Positions 7,177 to 21,195 of a DNA stretch of 23,245 nucleotides are shown here, one piece after another. The position numbers were made by a program, and so were the translations under genes. The number at the start of each line of letters is the position of its first letter. The first letter of the stretch is position 1. The notes below the pieces were generated by a model. That model was not told where the DNA came from, searched no databases, and saw only the letters and a program-made list of their open reading frames with translations. The stretch lies in IMG/VR virus record IMGVR_UViG_2718217709_000004. The stretch is one strand, 5' to 3'. This DNA comes from a virus. Taxonomy: Duplodnaviria > Heunggongvirae > Uroviricota > Caudoviricetes.

Positions 7177-7665
7177 ATGATGATGATCTACGGCATGTTT
7201 GTTTTTGAGCTGCGCACGCTGCCGCATCAGCAGTTACAGCAAAACAAAAGCTGGCGGCATGTGAAAAATGAACGCGTTAACCGTTCAGCAAGCTGGCAGT
7301 ATATCGGTGCAGGTGATGATCGCATCGTTCTTTCTGGTGTGCTTTATCCTGAAATTACAGGTGGCGAAGTGTCGCTGTCGCTGCTGACCACGCAGGCGTA
7401 TACAGGACGACCCTGGCCTTTGATTGATGGCGTCGGGCAGATTTACGGCATGTATGTCCTGACCGGAACGAACACGACCCGTTCCGAGTTTGATCGCTAC
7501 GGTAAGGCGAAAAAGATAGAATTTTCACTGACCCTTGAACGCTGTGATGAGGATTTGCGGGAGCGCCTGCAATCCTCATCGTTCAGCGATATGCTGTCCG
7601 GCTTCAAAGATAAAGTGACATCATCCCTTAACAGCGCGGCCAGTTCAGTTAAAGGGCTGTTCTGA
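7177..7665 (+). CDS. U: tail protein gpU-like
   Basis: Motifs VLSGVLYPEITGG and WPLIDG...IYGMYV parallel P2 gpU. Start chosen at the second or third ATG (7177) for spacing from the GAGGAG RBS at 7163-7168. Confidence 0.8.
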   Translation: MMMIYGMFVFELRTLPHQQLQQNKSWRHVKNERVNRSASWQYIGAGDDRIVLSGVLYPEITGGEVSLSLLTTQAYTGRPWPLIDGVGQIYGMYVLTGTNTTRSEFDRYGKAKKIEFSLTLERCDEDLRERLQSSSFSDMLSGFKDKVTSSLNSAASSVKGLF

Positions 7666-7682
7666 TTTAATGCTGGCCACTC

Positions 7683-7714
7683 ATACCTGGTAATAAGTGG
7701 CCAGTCTTAACACT
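7683..7714 (+). terminator. hairpin downstream of U (possible terminator)
   Basis: 9-bp stem ctggccact / agtggccag with a 14-nt loop; the downstream tract is only weakly T-rich. Confidence 0.35.
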
Positions 7715-7827
7715 CACCATTTGATTGCACCCGCGTTAACGATTTGTTACTGGGTATCAGACATGCTGGATAGCCAGTAGAAACATACCATTAAAATTAT
7801 TACAATAATTGGTCACATGATTATCTT

Positions 7828-8391
7828 ATGCTGAATAATAGAGATATGAATATTAATGAACTTAAAGACTGTATTCACTATGAAGTAATCGGTAGCGAGC
7901 GTCCTTTCTCCTGGCGAAAGGCAATTGTTCGCGCAATAAAACATAGAAGACTTCGTTATTTATTTTGGTGGCGCATAGCCAAATACCTTTTTGATAAAGG
8001 CGGATACTGCCGGAAGATTGCGGGGAAAATAGAACGTTTCATTCTTGATAAATATAATGTAACAGTCCCTTTAACTGTAAATATAGGGAAAGGCTTTGAT
8101 ATTTCTTATCTCAACAGTGTTGTTATCGGTCACAAAGTAACAATCGGTGAAAATTGTTCAATAAAACCGGGGGTAACTATTGGGCTACGTGGTGATTTTA
8201 ATGATATGGATATTGTTATAGGACATAATGTGACCATTGGTTGTAATGCCACCATTCTTGGTGGCAAAGTGCGTATAGGAAACAATGTCACAATAGGTGC
8301 TCATGCATTGGTATTGCATGATATTCCTGATGATTCAACATTCATCACTAAATTTCAGTCTGAAGTTATCTGCTCGTCCTCCCGCACATAA
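7828..8391 (+). CDS. hexapeptide-repeat (left-handed beta-helix) acetyltransferase, serine acetyltransferase/WcaB-like; cargo gene
   Basis: Repeated [LIV]-G-x-x-x-x hexads ([21 protein letters not shown]...[34 protein letters not shown]) and an N-terminal [13 protein letters not shown] segment typical of this acetyltransferase class. The region 7680-8400 is markedly AT-rich against GC-rich phage flanks. Start codon uncertain (7828 or 7846). Confidence 0.75.
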
Positions 8392-12167: not shown

Positions 12168-12474
12168 TACGCCCACCTTCGCTGATGGTGAATGACTCAC
12201 AGCGCGCCGCCTGTATGTCGCTGATGGCCATATTCTGTGTGGGTTCGATTATCTCCACGCGTTGCACACCGTGCACATGCAGTGCGGCAGCAATGGCGGA
12301 CAACGCCACGTCCTGACCGATAAGCCCCTGCTCAGCCAGCCACTTCCTGAACGACGATTCAGCCGCAGCCAGAATAGGTTCGGATTCCGGGCCGGGATAA
12401 AAGTACAGTTTTGCATTCAGCCGCCATGTCACGATTCTGGCGCTCTGACGGGCATGGCGAGAGATAGTGCTCAA
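12160..12474 (-). pseudogene. J: baseplate gpJ C-terminal fragment (5'-truncated)
   Basis: Only about 100 codons remain of a ~300-aa protein (...ILAAAESSFRKWLAEQGLIGQDVALSAIAAALHVHGVQRVEIIEP...). No J N-terminus, W, V, S or R genes lie upstream. Confidence 0.7.
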
Positions 12475-12619
12475 CGTTCACGCGGGCAGCGTAAACATCC
12501 GGGTTGAAGTTCTCGGCGGCTTCACGCAGATGTACCGGGCTGATTTCGCGGCCATCAACAGTTGATCCGGAGACAGCCACGCGAAACTTTTTGCGGGATG
12601 TCTTTTTTTCATTAGCCAT
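12359..12619 (-). pseudogene. O: capsid scaffold gpO N-terminal fragment fused out of frame to the J remnant
   Basis: MANEKKTSRKKFRVAVSGSTVDGREISPVHLREAAENFNPDVYAARVNVEHY parallels the P2 gpO N-terminus; GAGGGG RBS upstream. After about 50 codons the frame runs through J-derived sequence and stops at 12359. Confidence 0.7.
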
Positions 12620-12773
12620 AGTTTTTGCCCCTCTGACTGGTTCTTCAGTCATGATGGCAAAGCGTAACAGGCTGATACAAAGGGCTTTTGTTGTAAGAAA
12701 ACGGCCAGAACAGGGGGTTAAGGAGAACGGTTTCGCGCGCGGGTAATCTTCCTGTAATTACTCAGGGGGAGCA

Positions 12774-14036
12774 ATGATTCAGGACGCTTTTGTGCGCCAG
12801 CGTGCGCGGCAACTTTACTGGCAGGGTTATCCGCCCGCAGAAATATCACGTCTGATGGGAATAAACCCGAACACGATTTATGCGTGGAAAAAACGCGACC
12901 AGTGGGATGAAACGCCCCCCGTGCAGCGTGTCACGCAGTCCATCGATGCGCGCCTCATCCAGCTTACTGAAAAACAGAATAAAACAGGCGGTGACTTTAA
13001 GGAAATAGACCTGCTGACCCGGCAGCTTAAAAAGCTGCATGATGGCCAGCCGGATGTGATGGCCGCAGGAAAGAAAGGCCGGGCGAAAAAACTTAAAAAT
13101 CATTTCACGCCGGAACAGATTGCCGCACTGCGGGAAAAAATCATCAGCAGGCTGGAGTGGCATCAGCGGGGCTGGTTTGACTCCCTGACACTTTGCAGGG
13201 AAGCCGGGATACGTAACAGGATGATCCTGAAATCCCGACAGATTGGGGCGACCTGGTATTTTGCACAGGAAGCTCTGCTGATGGCGCTGCGTGACGATGT
13301 GGCGCAACCTTACCAGCGTAACCAGATTTTTTTGTCTGCGTCGCGTCGTCAGGCGTTCCAGTTTAAAAGCATTATTCAGAAGGTCGCGGCTGAAGTTGAT
13401 GTGGAGCTGAAAGGGGGCGATAAAATCATCCTCTCCAACGGCGCAGAGCTGCATTTTCTCGGCACTTCTGCTGCGTCGGCACAGTCCTATACGGGCAATT
13501 TTTATTTTGATGAATTTTTCTGGGTCAGTCGCTTTGCTGAACTGCGCAAGGTGGCTGGCGCTATGGCAACCCTCAGCGGACTGCGGCGCACCTACTTCTC
13601 CACGCCATCCACCGAAACGCACGAGGCGTACGCCTACTGGAACGGCGACCGCTGGAACGAGAAAAAGGCCTCGCATAAACGCCAGCGTTTTTCTGTGGAC
13701 TGGAAAACGCTGCATAACGGGCTTATCTGCCCTGACCGGACTTGGCGGCAAATTGTCACGCTGGAAGATGTGGTTAATCACGGCTGGAAACACACCGATA
13801 TCGACGAAATTCGTGATGAAAACACCGAAGACGAGTTCCTCAATCTCTATATGTGTGAGTTTGTCCGCGAAGGGGAATCGGCATTTAACCTGAATATCCT
13901 GATTGGCTGCGGTGTTGACGGATACGACGACTGGAAAGACTGGAAACCTTTTGCTCCCCGCCCGATGGGGAATCGTCCGGTATGGATTGGGTATGACGCA
14001 AACGGCAGCAGTGGCAACGGCGACATGCCAGCTTGA
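12774..14036 (+). pseudogene. P: terminase large (ATPase) subunit gpP, 3'-truncated
   Basis: N-terminal two-thirds of a P2-type large terminase (MIQDAFVRQRARQLYWQGYPPAEISRLMGINPNTIYAWKKRDQWDE...). The ORF ends at 420 aa and the A gene stop is only about 110 bp away, so no portal Q or cos can follow. Confidence 0.8.
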
Positions 14037-14101
14037 TGTTGGTGGAGCCGTCGTCGATACAAATTTTCATGTCGCTTTTCCTTATGTTGATTAATTAATC
14101 G

Positions 14102-14137
14102 TTTACGGGATTCTGAAATCCCGTTTTTGCCTGTTTT
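14102..14137. repeat. hairpin-containing direct repeat, copy 1 (intergenic, P remnant / A junction)
   Basis: tttacgggattctgaaatcccgtttttgcctgtttt: 7-bp stem acgggat / atcccgt followed by a T-run, acting as a plus-strand terminator-like element. Confidence 0.6.
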
Positions 14138-14146
14138 ATGCGCGCT

Positions 14147-16969
14147 TCATATATCGCGGCGCGTTTTTTGCTCATTTACGGGATTTGTGAATCCCGTTTC
14201 TGTCTGTTTTTTGTTTCCACTGGTCAGGCCACCCCGCAGCAGGTCTGCTTTGCGGTGGGCGCGTTCAGTTGTTTCACTGATTCTCTGTGCGTGCTCTGCG
14301 TCGCGGATGGCGCGCAGCATGTCAGAAAGTACGGTAACGGGTGTTTTCATGGTGTTCTGGTCTTGCTGAAGTGTGGATGCCAGGCGTGCGGCGGCTTCAT
14401 GGTCTGATGCCCTTAGTTGTTCCAGATAGCCGGCGACCGGGTTATGGCGGATCTCCGTGCTGCTTACGCCGTGATTACGGCTCAGGCGCTGCCAGAGCTG
14501 CGTGATTCGGCTGTCCGGGCGGGTATCCGGTTTGCGTACAATTTCAAATCCCTGCGGTGCAATGATGCTGCCGTCAACGTACAGGCTGCCGCCCCGTAAC
14601 AGGTGCTGCATCTGCTGTTCACCGATATGCAGGCCGAGAGATTCGGCAGATTCCCGCCATTCTTTAGCGAGTAATTCGTGGTTATCAGGCAAAGGCCGCT
14701 GCTGTTTGCGGCTCTGTGTCCAGCTCTGCATTTCATCACTGCTGTTTTTTGCCTGTTTGTCACGCAGCGAACGCATCAGCGCCCGGCGTTCGTGCCGTTT
14801 CAGTGAGCGCATCCAGTCATCCACATCAACGCCGTCAGGAAGCTGCGGCCACAGTGCTGGCCGTTCTTCCGGCTGTTCTGTCCCGTTGTTGTCCGTTTCC
14901 TGTACACGGGGACAGTTATTGCCACGAGTCCAAGGGGCGGCAGGGCCGCCCTGAAGGTCAAAACCATTTTCGTGGGCGTTGTCTTCCGGTTCTGGTTTAC
15001 GTCTTACCAGCTTCCAGTTATCCGGATGCGTGCACACACGGGAGGATTCCCCGATGAGTGGTGACCAGATCCCGTAAATCTGTACGCTCTGTTCGCCGTA
15101 ATCGTTCAGCTCATCTGCGAGGTCGTAGGCGGTGCGAATCAGGTAGTCCTTGCGTGGAACAAGCACGCCACCCTGTTTTTCAATGTAGGTGGCAAAACAC
15201 CCGGCATCGGCGGCAGCGAGTACCGCATCCATTGCATCATCTTTCAGCCGTTGCGGGCCTTCCGGATTGCGTGCCATCTGGCTGGCAAGGCGGCGCAGTT
15301 CACGCCACACCTGACGGGAGGGGATGCCAAAGAACTGGAACTGACGGACCCGGTGAAGGCGCGCCCAGCCGATGGCGCGCTCCACGCTCTCGGCCATTGA
15401 TTTTCCGGTTTCGTGGTCAACGCGTGGCTTGCCCGTTTTCGGGTCGATGCCATCCACGGCGCGGCTGTCCAGGTTCTTTCCGATGTAGGTGGCGATGTAG
15501 CTGGTTGGTGTGCCTTTTGAGCCGTCGACATACTCCGCCTTAAAACGCGGAGTTATGTCATCGCCCAGCTCGTGGCGGTCCTCCTGAATGGCAATATCGC
15601 AGACGTGGGACACGATGGTTTCAATCTCGTCCGGATGTGCAAAGACCATCATATGCCAGTGCACAGTGCCGTCATGGTGAGGCTCCACCGTGCGGATGCC
15701 ATACCAGCGCAGGCCGTCGCGGTTCAGTTTTTTGCGGACCGCCGCAAAAAACGTGTTAACCAGGTAATCGCTGGAGTCGCGCATGGTGGCCCCGTTCCAT
15801 TTGGGGTTCGGATGACCGTTCTCCGTTGTTGCGTGGTATTTTGACGGGCAGGTGACGGTCAGAAACACCGCTCTGTCGCCACGGGCTTCGGCCAGAAGTT
15901 CCAGTCCCTTCATGGTGGCCATCATTTCTGCCTTACGGTGAACCGGGTTACTTACTCCCGCGTAATACACCGTCTCGAGATCAATCGTGAACCCGTCTTC
16001 ATTTTCCAGCATGAAACTTTTCAGGAAATCGCGTGTTTTCTCGCGCTGTGCGCGAAACTCGCTTAACGCGTCCTGGCTCAGATAGGGGGATGTTTTTCTG
16101 GAAACCAGACAGGCGGCGCGGAGTTGTTCTTCCCGCCACTCACAACGTAACAGCCACAGTTTGCGTTTCCACCATTCCGCACAGGTCAGGCGAAGGATTG
16201 CGCCCGGCAGCAGCTCCGTGTCCGGTTCGTTCCTCCGGTCTTTGTCTGTTGTCAGTGCGTCATAATGTGGAGGCATGGCGTGCAGGTGTAACGCCATGCG
16301 GGCCAGCATCTGATAAGCCTTCAGCGTTACATCCATGGTCAGCTCGCCATCAGTCGCGCCAAAGCCATCGCAGAGTTTTTCGAAGGTGCTGCTGAACATC
16401 GCCGCCGTCATGGTGGCCAGCGTCTGTATCTGGTGTTTGTTGAGCTGCGGCAGGTAAAGCAAATCATCCAGGCGTTCGCGTCCGGCAAGGGAGCGATAAC
16501 CCGGTGTCAGCCAGCGGTGGTCGGTGCGGTCCAGACGTTCGAATATTTTGCGCAGGGTTCCGCACGCGTAGCGTTCAGCCTGCCAGCTCTTGTTGCCTTT
16601 CCGGCGATCGGCTTCCTGTTTTTTGCGCAGGAAGGAGAGGTGGCGAATAAGCGGATCGCGCAGATAGGACGGCAGCAGGCGCAGCGAGGCCATGGCTTCA
16701 TCCACCGCGCCACGTGCCTGTTTTCTGGCGTCTCCTGCCAGTGTGATGGTTTTGTCCTGTTTTTCCTGTGCGTCCAGGCTTTTATTAATCAGGTTGCCCA
16801 GCGGCGTGGCGGAGAACGCCGCATCAGCCATTTCCTGGCGGCGCTCGTTCTCTGCCCGGTAGGCATCCAGCCAGGAGGAAAGCGCGGATTCAGGAGCGGG
16901 GATCCCCGTTCCTTCACGCCCCACTGCGTGGCGCGGTTGTTGCCAGTCCCTGATGTACTCTGCCGTCAT
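14147..16969 (-). CDS. A: replication initiation endonuclease gpA (rolling-circle initiator)
   Basis: 940-aa ORF with the conserved YGIRTVEPHHDGTVHWHMMVF and YIATYIGKN catalytic-region motifs of P2/186 A proteins. It is longer than P2 A, so the C-terminal extension may be junction-derived. Confidence 0.85.
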   Translation of the reverse strand: MTAEYIRDWQQPRHAVGREGTGIPAPESALSSWLDAYRAENERRQEMADAAFSATPLGNLINKSLDAQEKQDKTITLAGDARKQARGAVDEAMASLRLLPSYLRDPLIRHLSFLRKKQEADRRKGNKSWQAERYACGTLRKIFERLDRTDHRWLTPGYRSLAGRERLDDLLYLPQLNKHQIQTLATMTAAMFSSTFEKLCDGFGATDGELTMDVTLKAYQMLARMALHLHAMPPHYDALTTDKDRRNEPDTELLPGAILRLTCAEWWKRKLWLLRCEWREEQLRAACLVSRKTSPYLSQDALSEFRAQREKTRDFLKSFMLENEDGFTIDLETVYYAGVSNPVHRKAEMMATMKGLELLAEARGDRAVFLTVTCPSKYHATTENGHPNPKWNGATMRDSSDYLVNTFFAAVRKKLNRDGLRWYGIRTVEPHHDGTVHWHMMVFAHPDEIETIVSHVCDIAIQEDRHELGDDITPRFKAEYVDGSKGTPTSYIATYIGKNLDSRAVDGIDPKTGKPRVDHETGKSMAESVERAIGWARLHRVRQFQFFGIPSRQVWRELRRLASQMARNPEGPQRLKDDAMDAVLAAADAGCFATYIEKQGGVLVPRKDYLIRTAYDLADELNDYGEQSVQIYGIWSPLIGESSRVCTHPDNWKLVRRKPEPEDNAHENGFDLQGGPAAPWTRGNNCPRVQETDNNGTEQPEERPALWPQLPDGVDVDDWMRSLKRHERRALMRSLRDKQAKNSSDEMQSWTQSRKQQRPLPDNHELLAKEWRESAESLGLHIGEQQMQHLLRGGSLYVDGSIIAPQGFEIVRKPDTRPDSRITQLWQRLSRNHGVSSTEIRHNPVAGYLEQLRASDHEAAARLASTLQQDQNTMKTPVTVLSDMLRAIRDAEHAQRISETTERAHRKADLLRGGLTSGNKKQTETGFTNPVNEQKTRRDI
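14175..14210. repeat. hairpin-containing direct repeat, copy 2 (inside the 3' end of A)
   Basis: tttacgggatttgtgaatcccgtttctgtctgtttt: same stem as copy 1 with a different loop, about 29/36 nt identical. It encodes the last residues of the A ORF (TETGFTNPVNEQK). Confidence 0.6.
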
Positions 16970-16975
16970 AGTGAT

Positions 16976-17341
16976 TTACTTCGTCATGCCATTCAGGGTG
17001 TCGCGGCAGACTGTAGCCAGCCGCTGAATTTCCAGCACGGTGTCTTCTGTGTCGGCATGGCGATGTGTGATGCGGATGCTGTCGGCAATCACATCGACGA
17101 TTGCAGAGGATGGGCGCTGGTAAATGCCAATAACGGACGGGGTGCCACCTTCAATGCGGTAAAGCCTGTAATTTCCCTCGTGGCTGTCAATCATGTAGCG
17201 ACCATCAATAACAATCTTTCCGTCAGCGAGCTGCGGTACAGGCAGGGATTTCAGGTACATGTCATAACGATCACGCACGCGAGCGGCAAGATCTCGTTCT
17301 GTGTTGAGCAGGTATTCAAGAAAGTCGTTGGCGAGAATCAT
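16976..17341 (-). CDS. hypothetical early protein (121 aa) immediately upstream of A
   Basis: Intact ORF whose stop lies 6 nt before the A start; family not recognised. Confidence 0.5.
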   Translation of the reverse strand: MILANDFLEYLLNTERDLAARVRDRYDMYLKSLPVPQLADGKIVIDGRYMIDSHEGNYRLYRIEGGTPSVIGIYQRPSSAIVDVIADSIRITHRHADTEDTVLEIQRLATVCRDTLNGMTK

Positions 17342-17413
17342 TGCGGCAATCCTCTTGTTACAGATGTGCGAAGGCCTCCCGCCGCAAGGTGCAGGAAAGG
17401 CCCGGAACAGGAA

Positions 17414-17644
17414 TTAATGGAGTTTGTTTTGCTGCTGGATGAGCTGTTGAAGCTCGTGCAGATCATCCGCCAGATAGCTGAAAACAGAGGCGGAATAAAT
17501 GTTTGATAGTGCGTGGCTGCGCTCATGCAGCATATTGATGTGCATGATTTGCGCGACGCGTGATGCGCGGGAAAGTCTGTGGTTGATTTCAGTCTGGATG
17601 TGACGACGCTCCGCGATAGTGCGGTGCTGTTTGCGGTCTGCCAT
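17414..17644 (-). CDS. hypothetical small early protein (76 aa)
   Basis: AAGAGG RBS about 7 nt upstream of the ATG; charged, helix-rich sequence; preceded by a structured leader. Confidence 0.5.
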   Translation of the reverse strand: MADRKQHRTIAERRHIQTEINHRLSRASRVAQIMHINMLHERSHALSNIYSASVFSYLADDLHELQQLIQQQNKLH

Positions 17645-17819
17645 GGTGTGGCCTCTTTGCTCGGTGATAGAAATAACTCACCATCCAGAGTTGAGAATCT
17701 CGGGGTGGCGAGACGTACAGGGTTCTCAACACCGGAGAGCAAAGAATCCGGCCCGACCGAAGTCGGCCCCGTACGCCCCGCCATAATTCTGACGCGAAAA
17801 AGACGTGGCAATACAGTGC

Positions 17820-17842
17820 GCACAAAAAAACCGCTTGCGCGG
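17820..17842 (-). terminator. rho-independent terminator within the early region (minus strand)
   Basis: On the minus strand: aaccgc-gcaa-gcggtt stem-loop (GNRA-type loop) followed by a run of seven T. Confidence 0.5.
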
Positions 17843-17966
17843 TTATGCGCTTTGCTCTGTATCGGGTTGAGAATCCCGGCACCCGTTTTATGAGCTGCAG
17901 CGGAAATGTAACCTGACCGATTGAGGCATGGCAAGCGGTTTTTTTGTGTGTGCATGTTCTGGTTTC

Positions 17967-18266
17967 TTACTGGTTCAGAAAAAAATCAAAAACGTTATCG
18001 ATGCGTTGCAGCAGCTCTTGCTGCATTGCTTCCGGCGTTTCCGGTTCGCCAGGTGCCCCCAGCGTTGCGCAGAAATCAGCGATTTCATGATGGAGCGTGA
18101 GGCGAATGGCAGGAGCCGTGGTTCTGGCGTGCTCCAGCTGATCCAGCAGTGCCAGCACAGCAGACGGCGAGAGCATTGCGCGAAATGCCAGTAATTTTTG
18201 AGGCGTTGCCATTCGTTGCAGGGCAAATGCCAGTTCGCGTAGCTTCTGGTGGTTGATGGTGCTCAT
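17967..18266 (-). CDS. hypothetical early protein (99 aa)
   Basis: ORF translationally coupled to the upstream gene; family not recognised. Confidence 0.5.
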   Translation of the reverse strand: MSTINHQKLRELAFALQRMATPQKLLAFRAMLSPSAVLALLDQLEHARTTAPAIRLTLHHEIADFCATLGAPGEPETPEAMQQELLQRIDNVFDFFLNQ

Positions 18267-18529
18267 GCTCTGGCTTCCTTCAGTAGCTGGTTAAACATGT
18301 GAGTAAGTGGATTGCTACACCCGAACAGCATCGGGTTTACGTGGTAAGAAGCCTGGCCTCCTGTTTTGCGAGCGCGACCACCTGTGCTGCGGTTTGTTCT
18401 GATGACTAAGCCGCCGCGCCAAAGTCGGCGTAACTCAGCATTAATGGCTGTGGTTGGGGTATTCAGTGCTGCGGCGATCTCTCCGCCGCTACACCCCGGA
18501 TGAGTAGCGATGTAGTCCAGAATGGTCAT
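18263..18529 (-). CDS. small winged-helix-like DNA-binding protein (88 aa)
   Basis: GGEIAAALNTPTTAINAELRRLWRGGLV resembles a winged-helix recognition helix plus wing; start and stop overlap the neighbouring genes. Confidence 0.5.
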   Translation of the reverse strand: MTILDYIATHPGCSGGEIAAALNTPTTAINAELRRLWRGGLVIRTNRSTGGRARKTGGQASYHVNPMLFGCSNPLTHMFNQLLKEARA

Positions 18530-18752: not shown

Positions 18753-18944
18753 CTATGCGTTAAATACGGCACATTGCGCGTCATCAATGAATACAGCTTG
18801 AGAGCGTTCTATCAGGCGGAGATTTGTCAGAAGCTCTGACTCTTTTGTGTGGTAAGGCGTTATCAGGTATTTGCCGTGCAGTTCGGCAATAATGGTGTAT
18901 TGCAGCATCATTGCTGAACCAAGAATATAAAATGCAGCGTCCAA
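18753..18944 (-). CDS. hypothetical small protein (63 aa), possibly the 3' part of a frameshifted gene
   Basis: ORF overlaps the distal part of the 19170 ORF in another frame; no clear RBS. Confidence 0.3.
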   Translation of the reverse strand: MDAAFYILGSAMMLQYTIIAELHGKYLITPYHTKESELLTNLRLIERSQAVFIDDAQCAVFNA

Positions 18945-18949
18945 TGCTG

Positions 18950-19170
18950 GACGGATTCATGGCTGCAACTGTTGACTGTGTTTTAAGAGTGTCGATTTCT
19001 TTGCTCTGTTCCTCAATAACTTTGGCTGCTTCAGAGGCGGCTATTGCGATGGTCAGTGCGTAAAGCGCTGCCATATGTTGATTATCTTTCTGGGCTGCCC
19101 TGGACAGCTTGTCTTGCTCTGCTGACACTATTTTTAATGTATTGATAATATTTTTTTCTTTTGCGTTCAT
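18950..19170 (-). CDS. hypothetical coiled-coil protein (N-terminal ~70 codons of track ORF 18784..19170)
   Basis: The N-terminal part is helical and protein-like; beyond about 18950 the same frame becomes low-complexity and overlaps the 18753..18944 ORF, suggesting a frameshift or an early natural stop. Confidence 0.3.
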
Positions 19171-20287: not shown

Positions 20288-20491
20288 TTAGCTGTTAGCC
20301 AAAGCGTCTTTTAACATCGCCACAAGGTTTACTTCAGGCTTTTCCATTTTGGCGCGTTTGGGGCGGATAATAATTCGACCGTCAGCCAACATCTTTTTGC
20401 ATGTATTAAGAGGGATACCTGTTATCTCTGCATATTTCTGCAGGGATACATAGGGGGCATTCACATTGATATTGATGGTTATACCTGACAT
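20288..20491 (-). CDS. small DNA-binding protein, Cox/Apl-like (possible excisionase / switch regulator)
   Basis: 67 aa; YVSLQKYAEITGIPLNTCKKMLADGRI resembles the helix-turn-helix of P2 Cox-type proteins; second gene of the lytic-side operon. Confidence 0.45.
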   Translation of the reverse strand: MSGITININVNAPYVSLQKYAEITGIPLNTCKKMLADGRIIIRPKRAKMEKPEVNLVAMLKDALANS

Positions 20492-20507
20492 CCCACTAGC
20501 CTCCTGA

Positions 20508-20714
20508 TCAGGAAGATTTGTTTTGTTCTTTCTGGGTTAGCTCTAGGCCGCGAAGGAAGATCATGCGCGCCATGTTAGAGGATGAGCGTTGTTCTTTAGC
20601 TGCCATTTCATCAATGACGGCTCGCTCCTCGAGGGACAGCCGAAGTGCCAGTCTTGGACCTGTGGCGGTGTTACGCGGAATGCGTGATCTGGTATCGTGA
20701 AGAACTTGTTTCAT
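20508..20714 (-). CDS. ribbon-helix-helix (Arc/CopG-like) regulator, first gene of the lytic-side operon
   Basis: ALRLSLEERAVIDEMAAKEQRSSSNMARMIFLRGLE fits the beta-strand / helix / helix pattern of RHH proteins; transcribed divergently from the repressor gene. No obvious RBS. Confidence 0.5.
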   Translation of the reverse strand: MKQVLHDTRSRIPRNTATGPRLALRLSLEERAVIDEMAAKEQRSSSNMARMIFLRGLELTQKEQNKSS

Positions 20715-20756
20715 AGTGGTATATTGTGATCATCTAATAGCTCGTGAAATCATTTT

Positions 20757-20774
20757 GGTATCAAAAAAGATACC
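20757..20774. promoter_or_regulatory. palindromic candidate operator in the divergent switch region
   Basis: Perfect inverted repeat ggtatc-aaaaaa-gatacc between the divergent RHH and XRE genes; a second ggtat half-site and a tgatca palindrome lie at 20718-20732. Confidence 0.4.
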
Positions 20775-20790
20775 TGTCAAGGTTTTTTGT

Positions 20791-21195
20791 ATGAAAAATG
20801 ATATTGGTCAGCGGTTGCGTGAGGAAAGGGAAAGATTGGGACTTAGTCAAGTTGCCATGAGCGACATTGGTGGAGTCAAAAAGCTAACTCAGCTTAGATA
20901 TGAGAAAGGAGATAGCTTTCCTGATGCTGCGTATTTGGCAGCGCTGTCTCGTTTTGGCCTTGATGTTCAGTATGTTGTGTTGGGAATTCACTCACCTGAA
21001 ACTTATAACGATGATGAGCAGGAGTTGATTACTCGCTTTCGAGCAGCTTCGTTAGATGTGAAAAACGCGGTGATTGGGGCTTTAAAAGGTGCGATCAGTG
21101 AAAAGGAAACTCAGCCATCAGGACGTGAGTTAAATATTTCTGGTGGTAATAACCGTATCGCTGGTCGTGACTATAACGAAACTAAGGGTAGGTGA
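20791..21195 (+). CDS. XRE-family helix-turn-helix repressor (CI-like immunity repressor candidate)
   Basis: IGQRLREERERLGLSQVAMSDIGGVKKLTQLRYEKGDSFPDAAYLAALSRFGLDVQYVVLG is a classic Cro/CI-type HTH; divergent from the lytic operon and co-directional with int. Start taken at ATG 20791 (MKNDIGQ), possibly leaderless, rather than the upstream GTG at 20716. Confidence 0.7.
   Translation: MKNDIGQRLREERERLGLSQVAMSDIGGVKKLTQLRYEKGDSFPDAAYLAALSRFGLDVQYVVLGIHSPETYNDDEQELITRFRAASLDVKNAVIGALKGAISEKETQPSGRELNISGGNNRIAGRDYNETKGR

Follow-up and report, generated by a model that had tools for sequence, protein, structure and literature searches.

An IsrK-C4-type RNA immunity cassette very probably occupies a conserved gap in the early operon of a P88-like Escherichia coli prophage

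We report that a 322-bp gap (positions 17645-17966) in the early operon of a P88-like Escherichia coli prophage is very probably an IsrK-C4 RNA immunity cassette, read from the minus strand and controlling an epsilon-like anti-repressor gene. The prophage lies in IMG/VR record IMGVR_UViG_2718217709_000004, a stretch of 23,245 nucleotides that was analysed as a whole and is called the window here. Judged from its sequence, the element is real and functional, and of the same kind as seqA-CI-seqC of P4, a1b1-c4-a2b2 of P1 and P7 and the isrK region of Gifsy-1. The sequence directly supports two RNA genes, a promoter-like site, a terminator, two pairing sets and the overlap of one target segment, b2, with a ribosome-binding site. 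An earlier note on this DNA had described the gap as structured non-coding sequence inside the early operon, and had proposed a regulated leader, an internal terminator or antiterminator, or a small RNA in place of spacer DNA. The placement and the structure stand, given the Rfam RNAs and the predicted folds, and all of the proposed roles apply, as the gap holds two Rfam small RNAs, an intrinsic terminator and the leader of a derepression gene. The term 'non-coding', however, is doubtful because a conserved frame of 205 codons (ORF205), open in relatives, crosses the gap.

The core of the cassette and the gene behind it consist of the following features:

17905..17934, minus strand: P_isrK, a predicted sigma-70-like promoter (promoter scan), with -35 TTGCCA at 17934..17929, an 18-nt spacer and -10 TACATT at 17910..17905
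17898..17824, minus strand: IsrK-like small RNA, the equivalent of the P4 'seqA RNA', with two hairpins, a linker and an intrinsic terminator
17822..17844, minus strand: t1, the intrinsic terminator of IsrK, AACCGC-GCAA-GCGGUU followed by U7 (hairpin and U-tract 17844..17824), found by terminator scan, Rfam structure and fold
17701..17788, minus strand: C4/CI-like antisense RNA, with a long closing stem, a UUCG hairpin at 17766..17753 and a second hairpin presenting b'
17414-17644, minus strand: 76-aa epsilon-like derepression gene, downstream neighbour of the gap and putative regulated gene, with its ATG at 17644

Both RNAs match their Rfam covariance models over the full model length. The upstream RNA scores 59.5 bits against RF01394 isrK (gathering score 50, E=1.2e-10, model positions 1-77 of 77), with two predicted pairs non-standard, and the downstream RNA scores 78.5 bits against RF01695 C4 (gathering score 45, E=4e-14, model positions 1-87 of 87). 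The promoter-like site ends 7 nt before the isrK match, placing the predicted start at about 17898, the first base of that match, and its two hexamers are invariant in six relatives and nearly so in 57. In P4, the homologous position ahead of the isrK match holds promoter-like hexamers, TTGCCT/TATAGT, presumably PLE. At the other end of the RNA, the minus-strand terminator that the earlier note had placed at 17820-17842 was found as t1, in the same place as the terminator hairpin inside the isrK matches of P4 and N15. Three traits of isrK are found here: a promoter-like site of its own, a rho-independent terminator and a place just upstream of a C4 RNA, which starts 35 nt downstream.

Folded alone, the C4 stretch has a minimum-energy structure identical to its centroid and to the Rfam family structure (-47.6 kcal/mol, z -4.06), so that the structure prediction called for earlier recovers the family fold. 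This fold leaves the recognition segments unpaired, b' in the loop of hairpin 2 and a' in the junction. The hairpin with a UUCG tetraloop that had been noticed on the minus-strand RNA at about 17750-17770 is CCGAC-UUCG-GUCGG at 17766..17753, and corresponds to hairpin 1 of both the Rfam match and the minimum-energy fold. A dedicated C4 promoter (TTGCCA-17-AATTAT, 17811..17783) was considered and judged unlikely, its -35 reading TCGCCA in many relatives and its -10 lying inside the C4 5' end.

The segments through which these RNAs would recognise each other are, in the direction of transcription:

17866..17875, minus strand: a1, GAUUCUCAAC, in the loop of IsrK hairpin 2, complementary to a' and covarying with it
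17850..17858, minus strand: b1, AGAGCAAAG, in the IsrK linker, complementary to b' as an inverted repeat
17736..17745, minus strand: b', UCUUUGCUCU, in the loop of C4 hairpin 2
17722..17730, minus strand: a', GUUGAGAAC, in the single-stranded C4 junction
17690..17699, minus strand: a2, GAUUCUCAAC, the first leader target, 2 nt after the C4 match, corresponding to P4 seqC or P1 a2
17663..17682, minus strand: small hairpin GGUGA...UCACC between a2 and b2, read from alignments
17652..17662, minus strand: b2 and Shine-Dalgarno sequence, b2 (GAGCAAAGA, 17662..17654, an inverted repeat of b') overlapping GAGG (17655..17652) of the derepression gene

Of the 'GTTGAGAA' repeats, one is a', with which C4 recognises its partners, and the other two are the sites that a' targets, a1 within IsrK and a2 within the leader. 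The earlier note had counted three copies, two of them forming an inverted pair at 17690-17730, and exact copies of GTTGAGAAYC indeed occur at 17690-17699 (+), 17721-17730 (-) and 17866-17875 (+), all in the gap. Three exact copies in the 23-kb window compare with 0.08 expected, and none of 100 shuffles reaches three; with one mismatch allowed, the count of 4 against 2.5 expected is not significant. Segments b', b1 and b2 form a second three-copy set, which the earlier note did not contain. The small hairpin between a2 and b2 recurs at the same place in relatives and in P4 with a different sequence, as read from the alignments.

Covariation among related phages carries the assignment of these segments. 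Six close relatives fall into four specificity types, in which the three a copies change in concert, as do the three b copies, and stay complementary. A scan of IMG/VR with the invariant C4 core returned 120 loci; their 81 unique modules comprise 13 variants of a' and 21 of b' in 29 combinations, with complementary sites at fixed offsets of -83, -68, +12 and +46. For a quantitative estimate, 57 distinct P88-like modules were aligned and compared with 500 shuffles and with controls in which the partners were slid by 1-3 columns. Between C4 and a1/b1, 95.7% of cells are paired, 206 cells carry double changes (52 when shuffled) and the covariation score is 0.598 against 0.108, a value reached by 0 of 500 shuffles and by no slid control (at most 0.148). 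Between C4 and a2/b2 the corresponding figures are 95.0% of cells paired, 193 double-change cells against 50, and a score of 0.577 against 0.120, again with 0 of 500 shuffles reaching it and similarly low slid controls. The b'-b1 helix is paired in every case, with changes on both sides in 7 of its 9 pairs, and the b'-b2 helix is paired in 98.6%, with both sides changed in 6 of 9. Predicted duplex energies follow the same pattern: cognate a2+b2 duplexes average -24.2 kcal/mol and non-cognate ones -10.4, and for a1+b1 the values are -21.8 and -8.4 kcal/mol. The check on related phages that had been suggested finds both the structure and its pairings conserved, where the earlier note had named a lack of conservation as the result that would speak against its view.

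Because of this three-way compensatory covariation, we regard the repeated motif as an RNA-RNA recognition element. The earlier note had suggested searching for the motif elsewhere with candidate operators in mind, and the presence of three copies within 190 bp near a promoter-like site would suit operators for a DNA-binding protein. Yet one copy is the reverse complement of the other two, the three copies change together in relatives with Watson-Crick pairing to the C4 segment kept, the b set behaves alike despite its unrelated sequence, and a motif search elsewhere in the 23-kb window gave no exact copy beyond the three in the gap. Copies in opposite orientation that covary as base pairs are not what protein operators would give, and we consider that role extremely improbable.

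The polarity of the a segments looks swapped between elements: a' of the window (GUUGAGAA) is similar to the target GUGAGAA found in P4 and the P4-like locus L105, both of which have an a', UUCUCAC, similar to a1/a2 of the window (UUCUCAAC), and a' of P88, GUGGAAA, equals a1/a2 of the P4-like locus L015. Because a' and target sequences resemble each other across elements in this way, a helper-type C4 could in principle pair with the CI RNA of a satellite, and the resemblance may also be coincidence.

The gene that begins directly behind b2 encodes a 76-aa protein that Pfam places in the Derepression family (PF25738, E=2.2e-8). With P4 epsilon, known as the 'helper derepression protein', it shares 30% identity (E=2e-10), and in relatives it is annotated as 'derepression protein'. 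By analogy with the known systems, P_isrK would be active in the lysogen and most transcripts would stop at t1, giving IsrK, while those reading through would be processed to a stable C4 RNA. C4 would pair with a2/b2 of further read-through transcripts, blocking epsilon translation and causing premature termination, so that the anti-repressor and the replication gene A would remain silent. IsrK, a decoy or autoregulatory site on this view, would compete through a1/b1 for the C4 segments that bind a2/b2, and more IsrK, or transcription entering from a derepressed early promoter (for which the promoter-like site at 20780..20752 in the switch region, upstream of the cassette, is a candidate), would tip the balance towards epsilon expression and induction. 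In P1 and P7, an incoming phage has its anti-repressor silenced by resident C4 only if the types match. The many a/b types seen here may likewise represent cassette specificity, new types escaping because a resident C4 would silence the anti-repressor of its own type only.

P4 CI RNA, as summarised in a study of Gifsy-1, is made by processing and acts as an antisense RNA that pairs with seqA and seqC to cause termination (PMC4825925). IsrK is a structural homologue of seqA; in Gifsy-1 its terminator is partially read through, a species of ~80 nt (STnc1160) is processed from the read-through transcript, and IsrK supplied in trans raises anti-repressor translation ~140-fold and induces the prophage (PMC4825925). 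The term 'IsrK-C4 immunity system' has been used for a class listing P4, P1, P7 and N15 (PMC3632133).

By this analogy the cassette appears to work like the P4 and P1 systems and to belong to the IsrK-C4 class, but it is not a P4 element. P4 has, like the window, an isrK match, a C4 match and an epsilon-type derepression gene in the same order, and in both a promoter-like site is placed identically with respect to the isrK 5' end. The two also share the order seqA - terminator - CI - seqC behind the promoter, with an intrinsic terminator between promoter and C4, a two-part downstream target whose second part lies over the Shine-Dalgarno sequence (read from the sequence), and a long frame starting upstream of the promoter, the 214-codon ORF of P4 (presumably eta) running over isrK and C4 in the same frame as ORF205. 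The window differs in its host, a P2-type helper-like phage with gpA and tail genes and not a satellite with alpha primase and sid/psu/delta. It has no kil/icd-like gene, epsilon following directly behind b2, whereas an Icd-like kil stands between seqC and epsilon in P4; the IsrK-to-C4 spacing is 35 nt against ~108 nt; ORF205 overlaps epsilon out of frame, whereas the P4 ORF ends in kil; and the window has an 18-nt long-range inverted repeat that P4 lacks. The 65-aa terminal peptide of the P4 214-codon ORF (eta/kil) matches NCBIfam Icd-like (E=1.4e-20), so that P4 kil is an Icd homologue, paralleling c4-icd of P1. The P4 record (L127 4169-4813, P4 8168-8812) still annotates a 'cI gene product, transcriptional repressor' coding sequence (CDS) over the CI RNA.

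For P1 and P7, Citron and Schuster reportedly described in 1990 an immI region of the order a1 b1 - c4 - a2 b2 - icd - ant, with a processed antisense RNA carrying a' and b'. Its two target sets stand on either side of it, upstream and downstream, with b2 covering the ribosome-binding site of the first gene of the anti-repressor operon, and different sequence specificities make the two phages hetero-immune. This a1b1-c4-a2b2 layout is the same as that of the window, which differs from P1/P7 in its epsilon-like anti-repressor, in the absence of icd and in having the upstream targets inside a separately terminated IsrK. The layout described for P1/P7 is consistent with a c4/ant entry (PMC12197685) and with the inclusion of 'c4-a1b1' in Rfam clan CL00128. 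N15 has both Rfam families in tandem with an annotated rho-independent terminator between them and is ~70% identical in nucleotides over the RNAs, but it is a linear plasmid-prophage with different downstream genes (gp32-gp30). Its CA RNA is said, by Ravin and co-workers, to control an anti-repressor operon.

Gifsy-1 of Salmonella resembles the window in several ways: its IsrK is transcribed from a promoter of its own and ends at a leaky terminator, a processed C4-like RNA (STnc1160) follows, the C4 region is overlapped by an ORF with AUGA coupling to the next gene, and the product is an anti-repressor that induces the prophage (PMC4825925). It is, however, a lambdoid prophage, its AnrP is described as anti-repressor-like where the window protein is epsilon-like, and its overlapping frame, orf45, has 45 codons and starts after IsrK, in contrast to the 205 codons starting upstream of the promoter in the window. 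The class of mechanism has been known since P1 and P4, and the present cassette leaves the kind of system unchanged. In the literature we found no description of an IsrK-C4 cassette in P2-like phages.

Several points weigh against this interpretation. The activity of P_isrK, the processing of C4, termination and the direction of the IsrK effect are all drawn from analogy. RF03163, the model of the a1/b1 target, has no match in the window at the gathering threshold or at E up to 10, although it does match some P4-like loci, and C4 is not followed by an icd/kil-type gene as it is in P1 and P4. The conserved open frame crosses the whole cassette, so that translation may belong to the mechanism beyond the antisense model. 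Nor does a LexA box tie the cassette to the SOS response: the pattern CTGT-N8-ACAG with at most one mismatch has 12 matches against 7.3 expected, none of them near P_isrK or the early promoter, and LexA/SOS control was rejected on this ground.

A further point is that the full read-through RNA, in its minimum-energy fold, has a'/b' paired in cis with a2/b2 and leaves no free C4. This bears on a different reading, in which the C4-like stretch is never released and the read-through RNA instead alternates between folds, a'/b' with a2/b2 closing the ribosome-binding site and a'/b' with a1/b1, or with free IsrK, opening it. Such a switch is the model proposed for isrK-orf45-anrP of Gifsy-1, where the experiments were interpreted in terms of two alternative structures, A and B, which IsrK opens in trans (PMC4825925). 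The 269-nt P_isrK transcript does pair b'-a' with a2-b2 in its minimum-energy fold (-108.2 kcal/mol, z -4.5), and pairing in cis would likewise yield covariation. Nevertheless, the stretch covers the whole C4 model and forms a stable fold by itself, and its closing stem, for which a purely cis switch would have no need, is conserved. The processed ~80-nt STnc1160 was detected in Gifsy-1, and P4 CI RNA is a product of processing with an antisense function (PMC4825925). The many specificity types also fit selection on trans interactions between phages, and we consider a switch acting in cis alone unlikely.

The IsrK-C4 interpretation has also to accommodate the long reading frame:

17955..17338, minus strand: ORF205, a 205-codon frame crossing IsrK, t1, C4, a2 and b2; candidate analogue of P4 eta

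ORF205 starts upstream of P_isrK, 5 nt before the upstream arm of the 18-nt repeat, runs over the epsilon-like gene in the +1 frame and terminates in an ATGA on the start of the 121-aa gene that follows. It is open in ~90% of related loci, and at least eight unrelated upstream contexts supply an in-frame ATG, placed 18 or 21 nt before the arm. The variable a/b segments create stops at many positions in the other two frames, against 4 of 71 sequences in the frame of ORF205. Over the epsilon region it is free of stops in all 66 variants (the third frame has 1-5), and when epsilon is recoded according to E. coli codon usage, a stop-free +1 frame has a probability of 0.048 in the case of the window's own variant and of 0.003 in that of a divergent one with 59% protein identity. 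The frame has a weak match to Pfam Phage_ASH and matches PHROG 'regulator' families, and it is an annotated CDS in P88_4B11 and PhiR44_2.

These observations could be taken to mean that the region is only a protein-coding gene, variously named 'transcriptional regulator', 'Ash family' or 'hypothetical protein', in which the RNA features are incidental. Against this, the amino acids encoded by the a/b segments change freely while RNA complementarity is strictly kept, two Rfam covariance models are matched above threshold, and the C-terminal 100 codons overlap, in another frame, the homology-supported epsilon gene, giving a low-complexity peptide rich in Ser, Thr and Cys. The 'regulator' label itself probably goes back to the 'cI gene product (AA 1-137)' CDS of the P4 record, but the P4 immunity factor is an RNA (PMC4825925), and ORF205 is not called in the two RefSeq copies inspected. 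Together these points make a purely protein-coding gene very improbable, whereas a frame that is translated with an unimportant peptide, as P4 eta is, would be compatible with the IsrK-C4 explanation. NCBIfam models, Icd-like included, match none of ORF205, the epsilon-like protein, the 121-aa ORF and the 99-aa ORF.

As the ORF205 peptide looks out-of-frame and of low complexity, it is probably the act of translation that matters and not the product. Forti et al. are said to have reported in 1999 that translation of P4 eta from the upstream PLL promoter makes transcription insensitive to immunity. In Gifsy-1, expression of anrP requires orf45, a translated frame that overlaps the C4-like RNA and is joined to anrP by AUGA coupling (PMC4825925). 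Given these two parallels, it is plausible that ORF205 is an eta-like 'ribosome escort', and its eta-like open frame would account for the 'transcriptional regulator' calls and for the PHROG 'regulator' and weak Phage_ASH matches.

The upstream boundary of the cassette is marked by one arm of a long-range inverted repeat:

17948..17931, minus strand: upstream arm, CACAAAAAAACCGCUUGC, upstream of and over the -35 hexamer; candidate antiterminator arm
17821..17838, minus strand: downstream arm, comprising the t1 loop, the 3' stem half, the U-tract and GUG

The earlier note had linked 17822-17836 with 17930-17945; the repeat is present and longer than given there, 18 nt without a mismatch (17821-17838 with 17931-17948), for which the chance expectation within 600 nt is, by a rough estimate, ~3e-6. 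Because the upstream arm precedes and overlaps the -35, it would be absent from P_isrK transcripts and carried only by transcripts from further upstream. In folds computed without this arm the t1 terminator hairpin forms; with it, an 18-bp helix replaces that hairpin (-51.7 kcal/mol, z -4.5). A bypass of t1 by early transcripts would make biological sense, since gene A lies beyond t1. We give roughly even odds to the repeat being an RNA antiterminator for early transcripts.

The other half of those odds goes to a repeat that has no function as RNA, its upstream arm being an A-tract UP element with the -35 hexamer, its downstream arm simply the terminator, and the resemblance between them historical or a reflection of a weak plus-strand terminator. 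An A7 tract does lie at about -47 to -41 from the predicted start, which is about where a proximal UP element sits. Both arms are invariant in relatives, so that they show no covariation, and the loop position that brings the repeat to 18 nt varies freely (C, A or T), while some relatives shorten the A-tract but not the U-tract. P4, N15 and other IMG/VR lineages have no equivalent arm, at most 9 nt being found, mostly an A-run. On the other side, beyond the A and U tracts eight more bases (CCGCUUGC with GCAAGCGG) and CAC/GUG match, which is unlikely by chance; the module's mosaic boundary falls exactly at the retained arm in at least eight upstream contexts; the arm makes the predicted fold exchange the terminator hairpin for the 18-bp helix; and early transcripts must pass t1 to reach gene A. 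A third role, that of an invertible promoter segment between the 18-bp inverted repeats, was rejected, all of ~115 related loci having the same orientation relative to C4 in the alignments.

The arm and the frame might also act together, transcripts from the early promoter alone carrying both the antiterminator arm and the ORF205 start codon, with translation running through the cassette to the next gene by ATGA coupling. We offer this joint bypass tentatively, as somewhat improbable. If true, lytic transcription towards gene A would be blind to the phage's own RNA immunity, and transcripts from the internal promoter would still be controlled.

More distant modules vary in which of these parts they contain. 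A gammaproteobacterial module in a Fluviicoccus sp. metagenome-assembled genome (L224, ~7480-8000) has a nearly identical IsrK terminator (GACCGCGCAAGCGGTTTTTTTGTGCG), its own complementary a/b set and an epsilon-like start (MAKPARNP...), and its lack of the upstream arm next to nearly the same terminator counts for a repeat without RNA function. When genome contigs (L130-L249) were scanned with a degenerate C4 core pattern, the matches were mostly from Pseudomonas, and 9 of 120 had an IsrK-type terminator within 140 nt upstream, so that many C4-like RNAs seem to be without an IsrK partner of this form; none of these nine has the upstream arm. In one locus (L030, IMGVR_UViG_2825488710_000003) three C4 copies stand in tandem at 1195-1282, 1578-1668 and 1965-2052, two of them preceded by isrK matches (1480-1559 and 1867-1946), and the region 1195-2052 is an array of RNA-immunity units, possibly covering several specificities.

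The gap lies within a run of minus-strand genes, between a 99-aa and the 76-aa gene. Its other neighbours are:

18263-18529, minus-strand run: MarR-like winged helix-turn-helix gene, upstream of the gap
17967-18266, minus-strand run: 99-aa gene, upstream neighbour of the gap
16976-17341, minus strand: 121-aa ORF, downstream, in the same transcription unit as the 76-aa gene
14147-16969, minus strand: gpA replication endonuclease, 940 aa (PF05840, E=1.7e-129), in the same transcription unit

No homology was found between the 121-aa ORF and P4 orf151 (E=0.16). The host is a P88-like (Xuanwuvirus) E. coli prophage of the P2 family: the flanks of the gap are ~92% identical to several P88/Xuanwuvirus-type phages, the nearest records being Xuanwuvirus/P88, and the window contains P2-type tail fibre, tail and terminase genes together with the gpA-type replication protein. 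P88 was isolated by mitomycin C induction (PMC5285337). In the closest phages the module is ~85% conserved, against ~92% for its flanks, and the differences are concentrated in a and b.

The prophage itself looks rearranged or defective at 12359-14147, where gpA is directly bordered by a 97-aa gpO fragment on the minus strand (12359-12652) and, on the plus strand, a 420-aa gpP-like terminase ORF (12774-14036); in P88 and PV468777, unlike in the window, ParM adjoins gpA. The early-operon ORF region at 18784-19170 is a frameshifted pseudogene according to the annotation of RefSeq relatives. The lysis-lysogeny switch region (20288-21195) differs from that of P88, with a plus-strand 159-aa HTH_31 protein (20716-21195), a candidate for the prophage repressor, facing minus-strand ORFs of 68 and 67 aa, and the same epsilon cassette is present in relatives with other repressor types.

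With window 17636-17966 as the query, the module is carried at 80% identity or more by 1102 of 5426 complete E. coli genomes (~20%), in up to four copies per genome. The identities are bimodal, 498 records lying at 95% or above and 597 at 80-90%, a distribution that fits discrete specificity types. The two RefSeq copies that were inspected annotate the module neither as an RNA nor as a regulatory region, and in some phage records a 'transcriptional regulator' CDS is called across it instead.

In summary, an IsrK-C4 identity accounts for the 'gap' that P2-like prophages of this very common family conserve in their early operon, and makes the cassette a probable control point for the anti-repressor and hence for prophage induction. 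The variation of a and b provides unusually clean material for studying how RNA-RNA specificity diversifies, and its variants could serve in the design of orthogonal antisense regulators. The link between a helper phage and the immunity and derepression genes of P4 satellites is relevant to helper-satellite co-evolution: a helper-type phage with a P4-type immunity and epsilon cassette of at least 22 specificities would suggest cross-talk or warfare at the RNA level between P2-like helpers and P4-like satellites.

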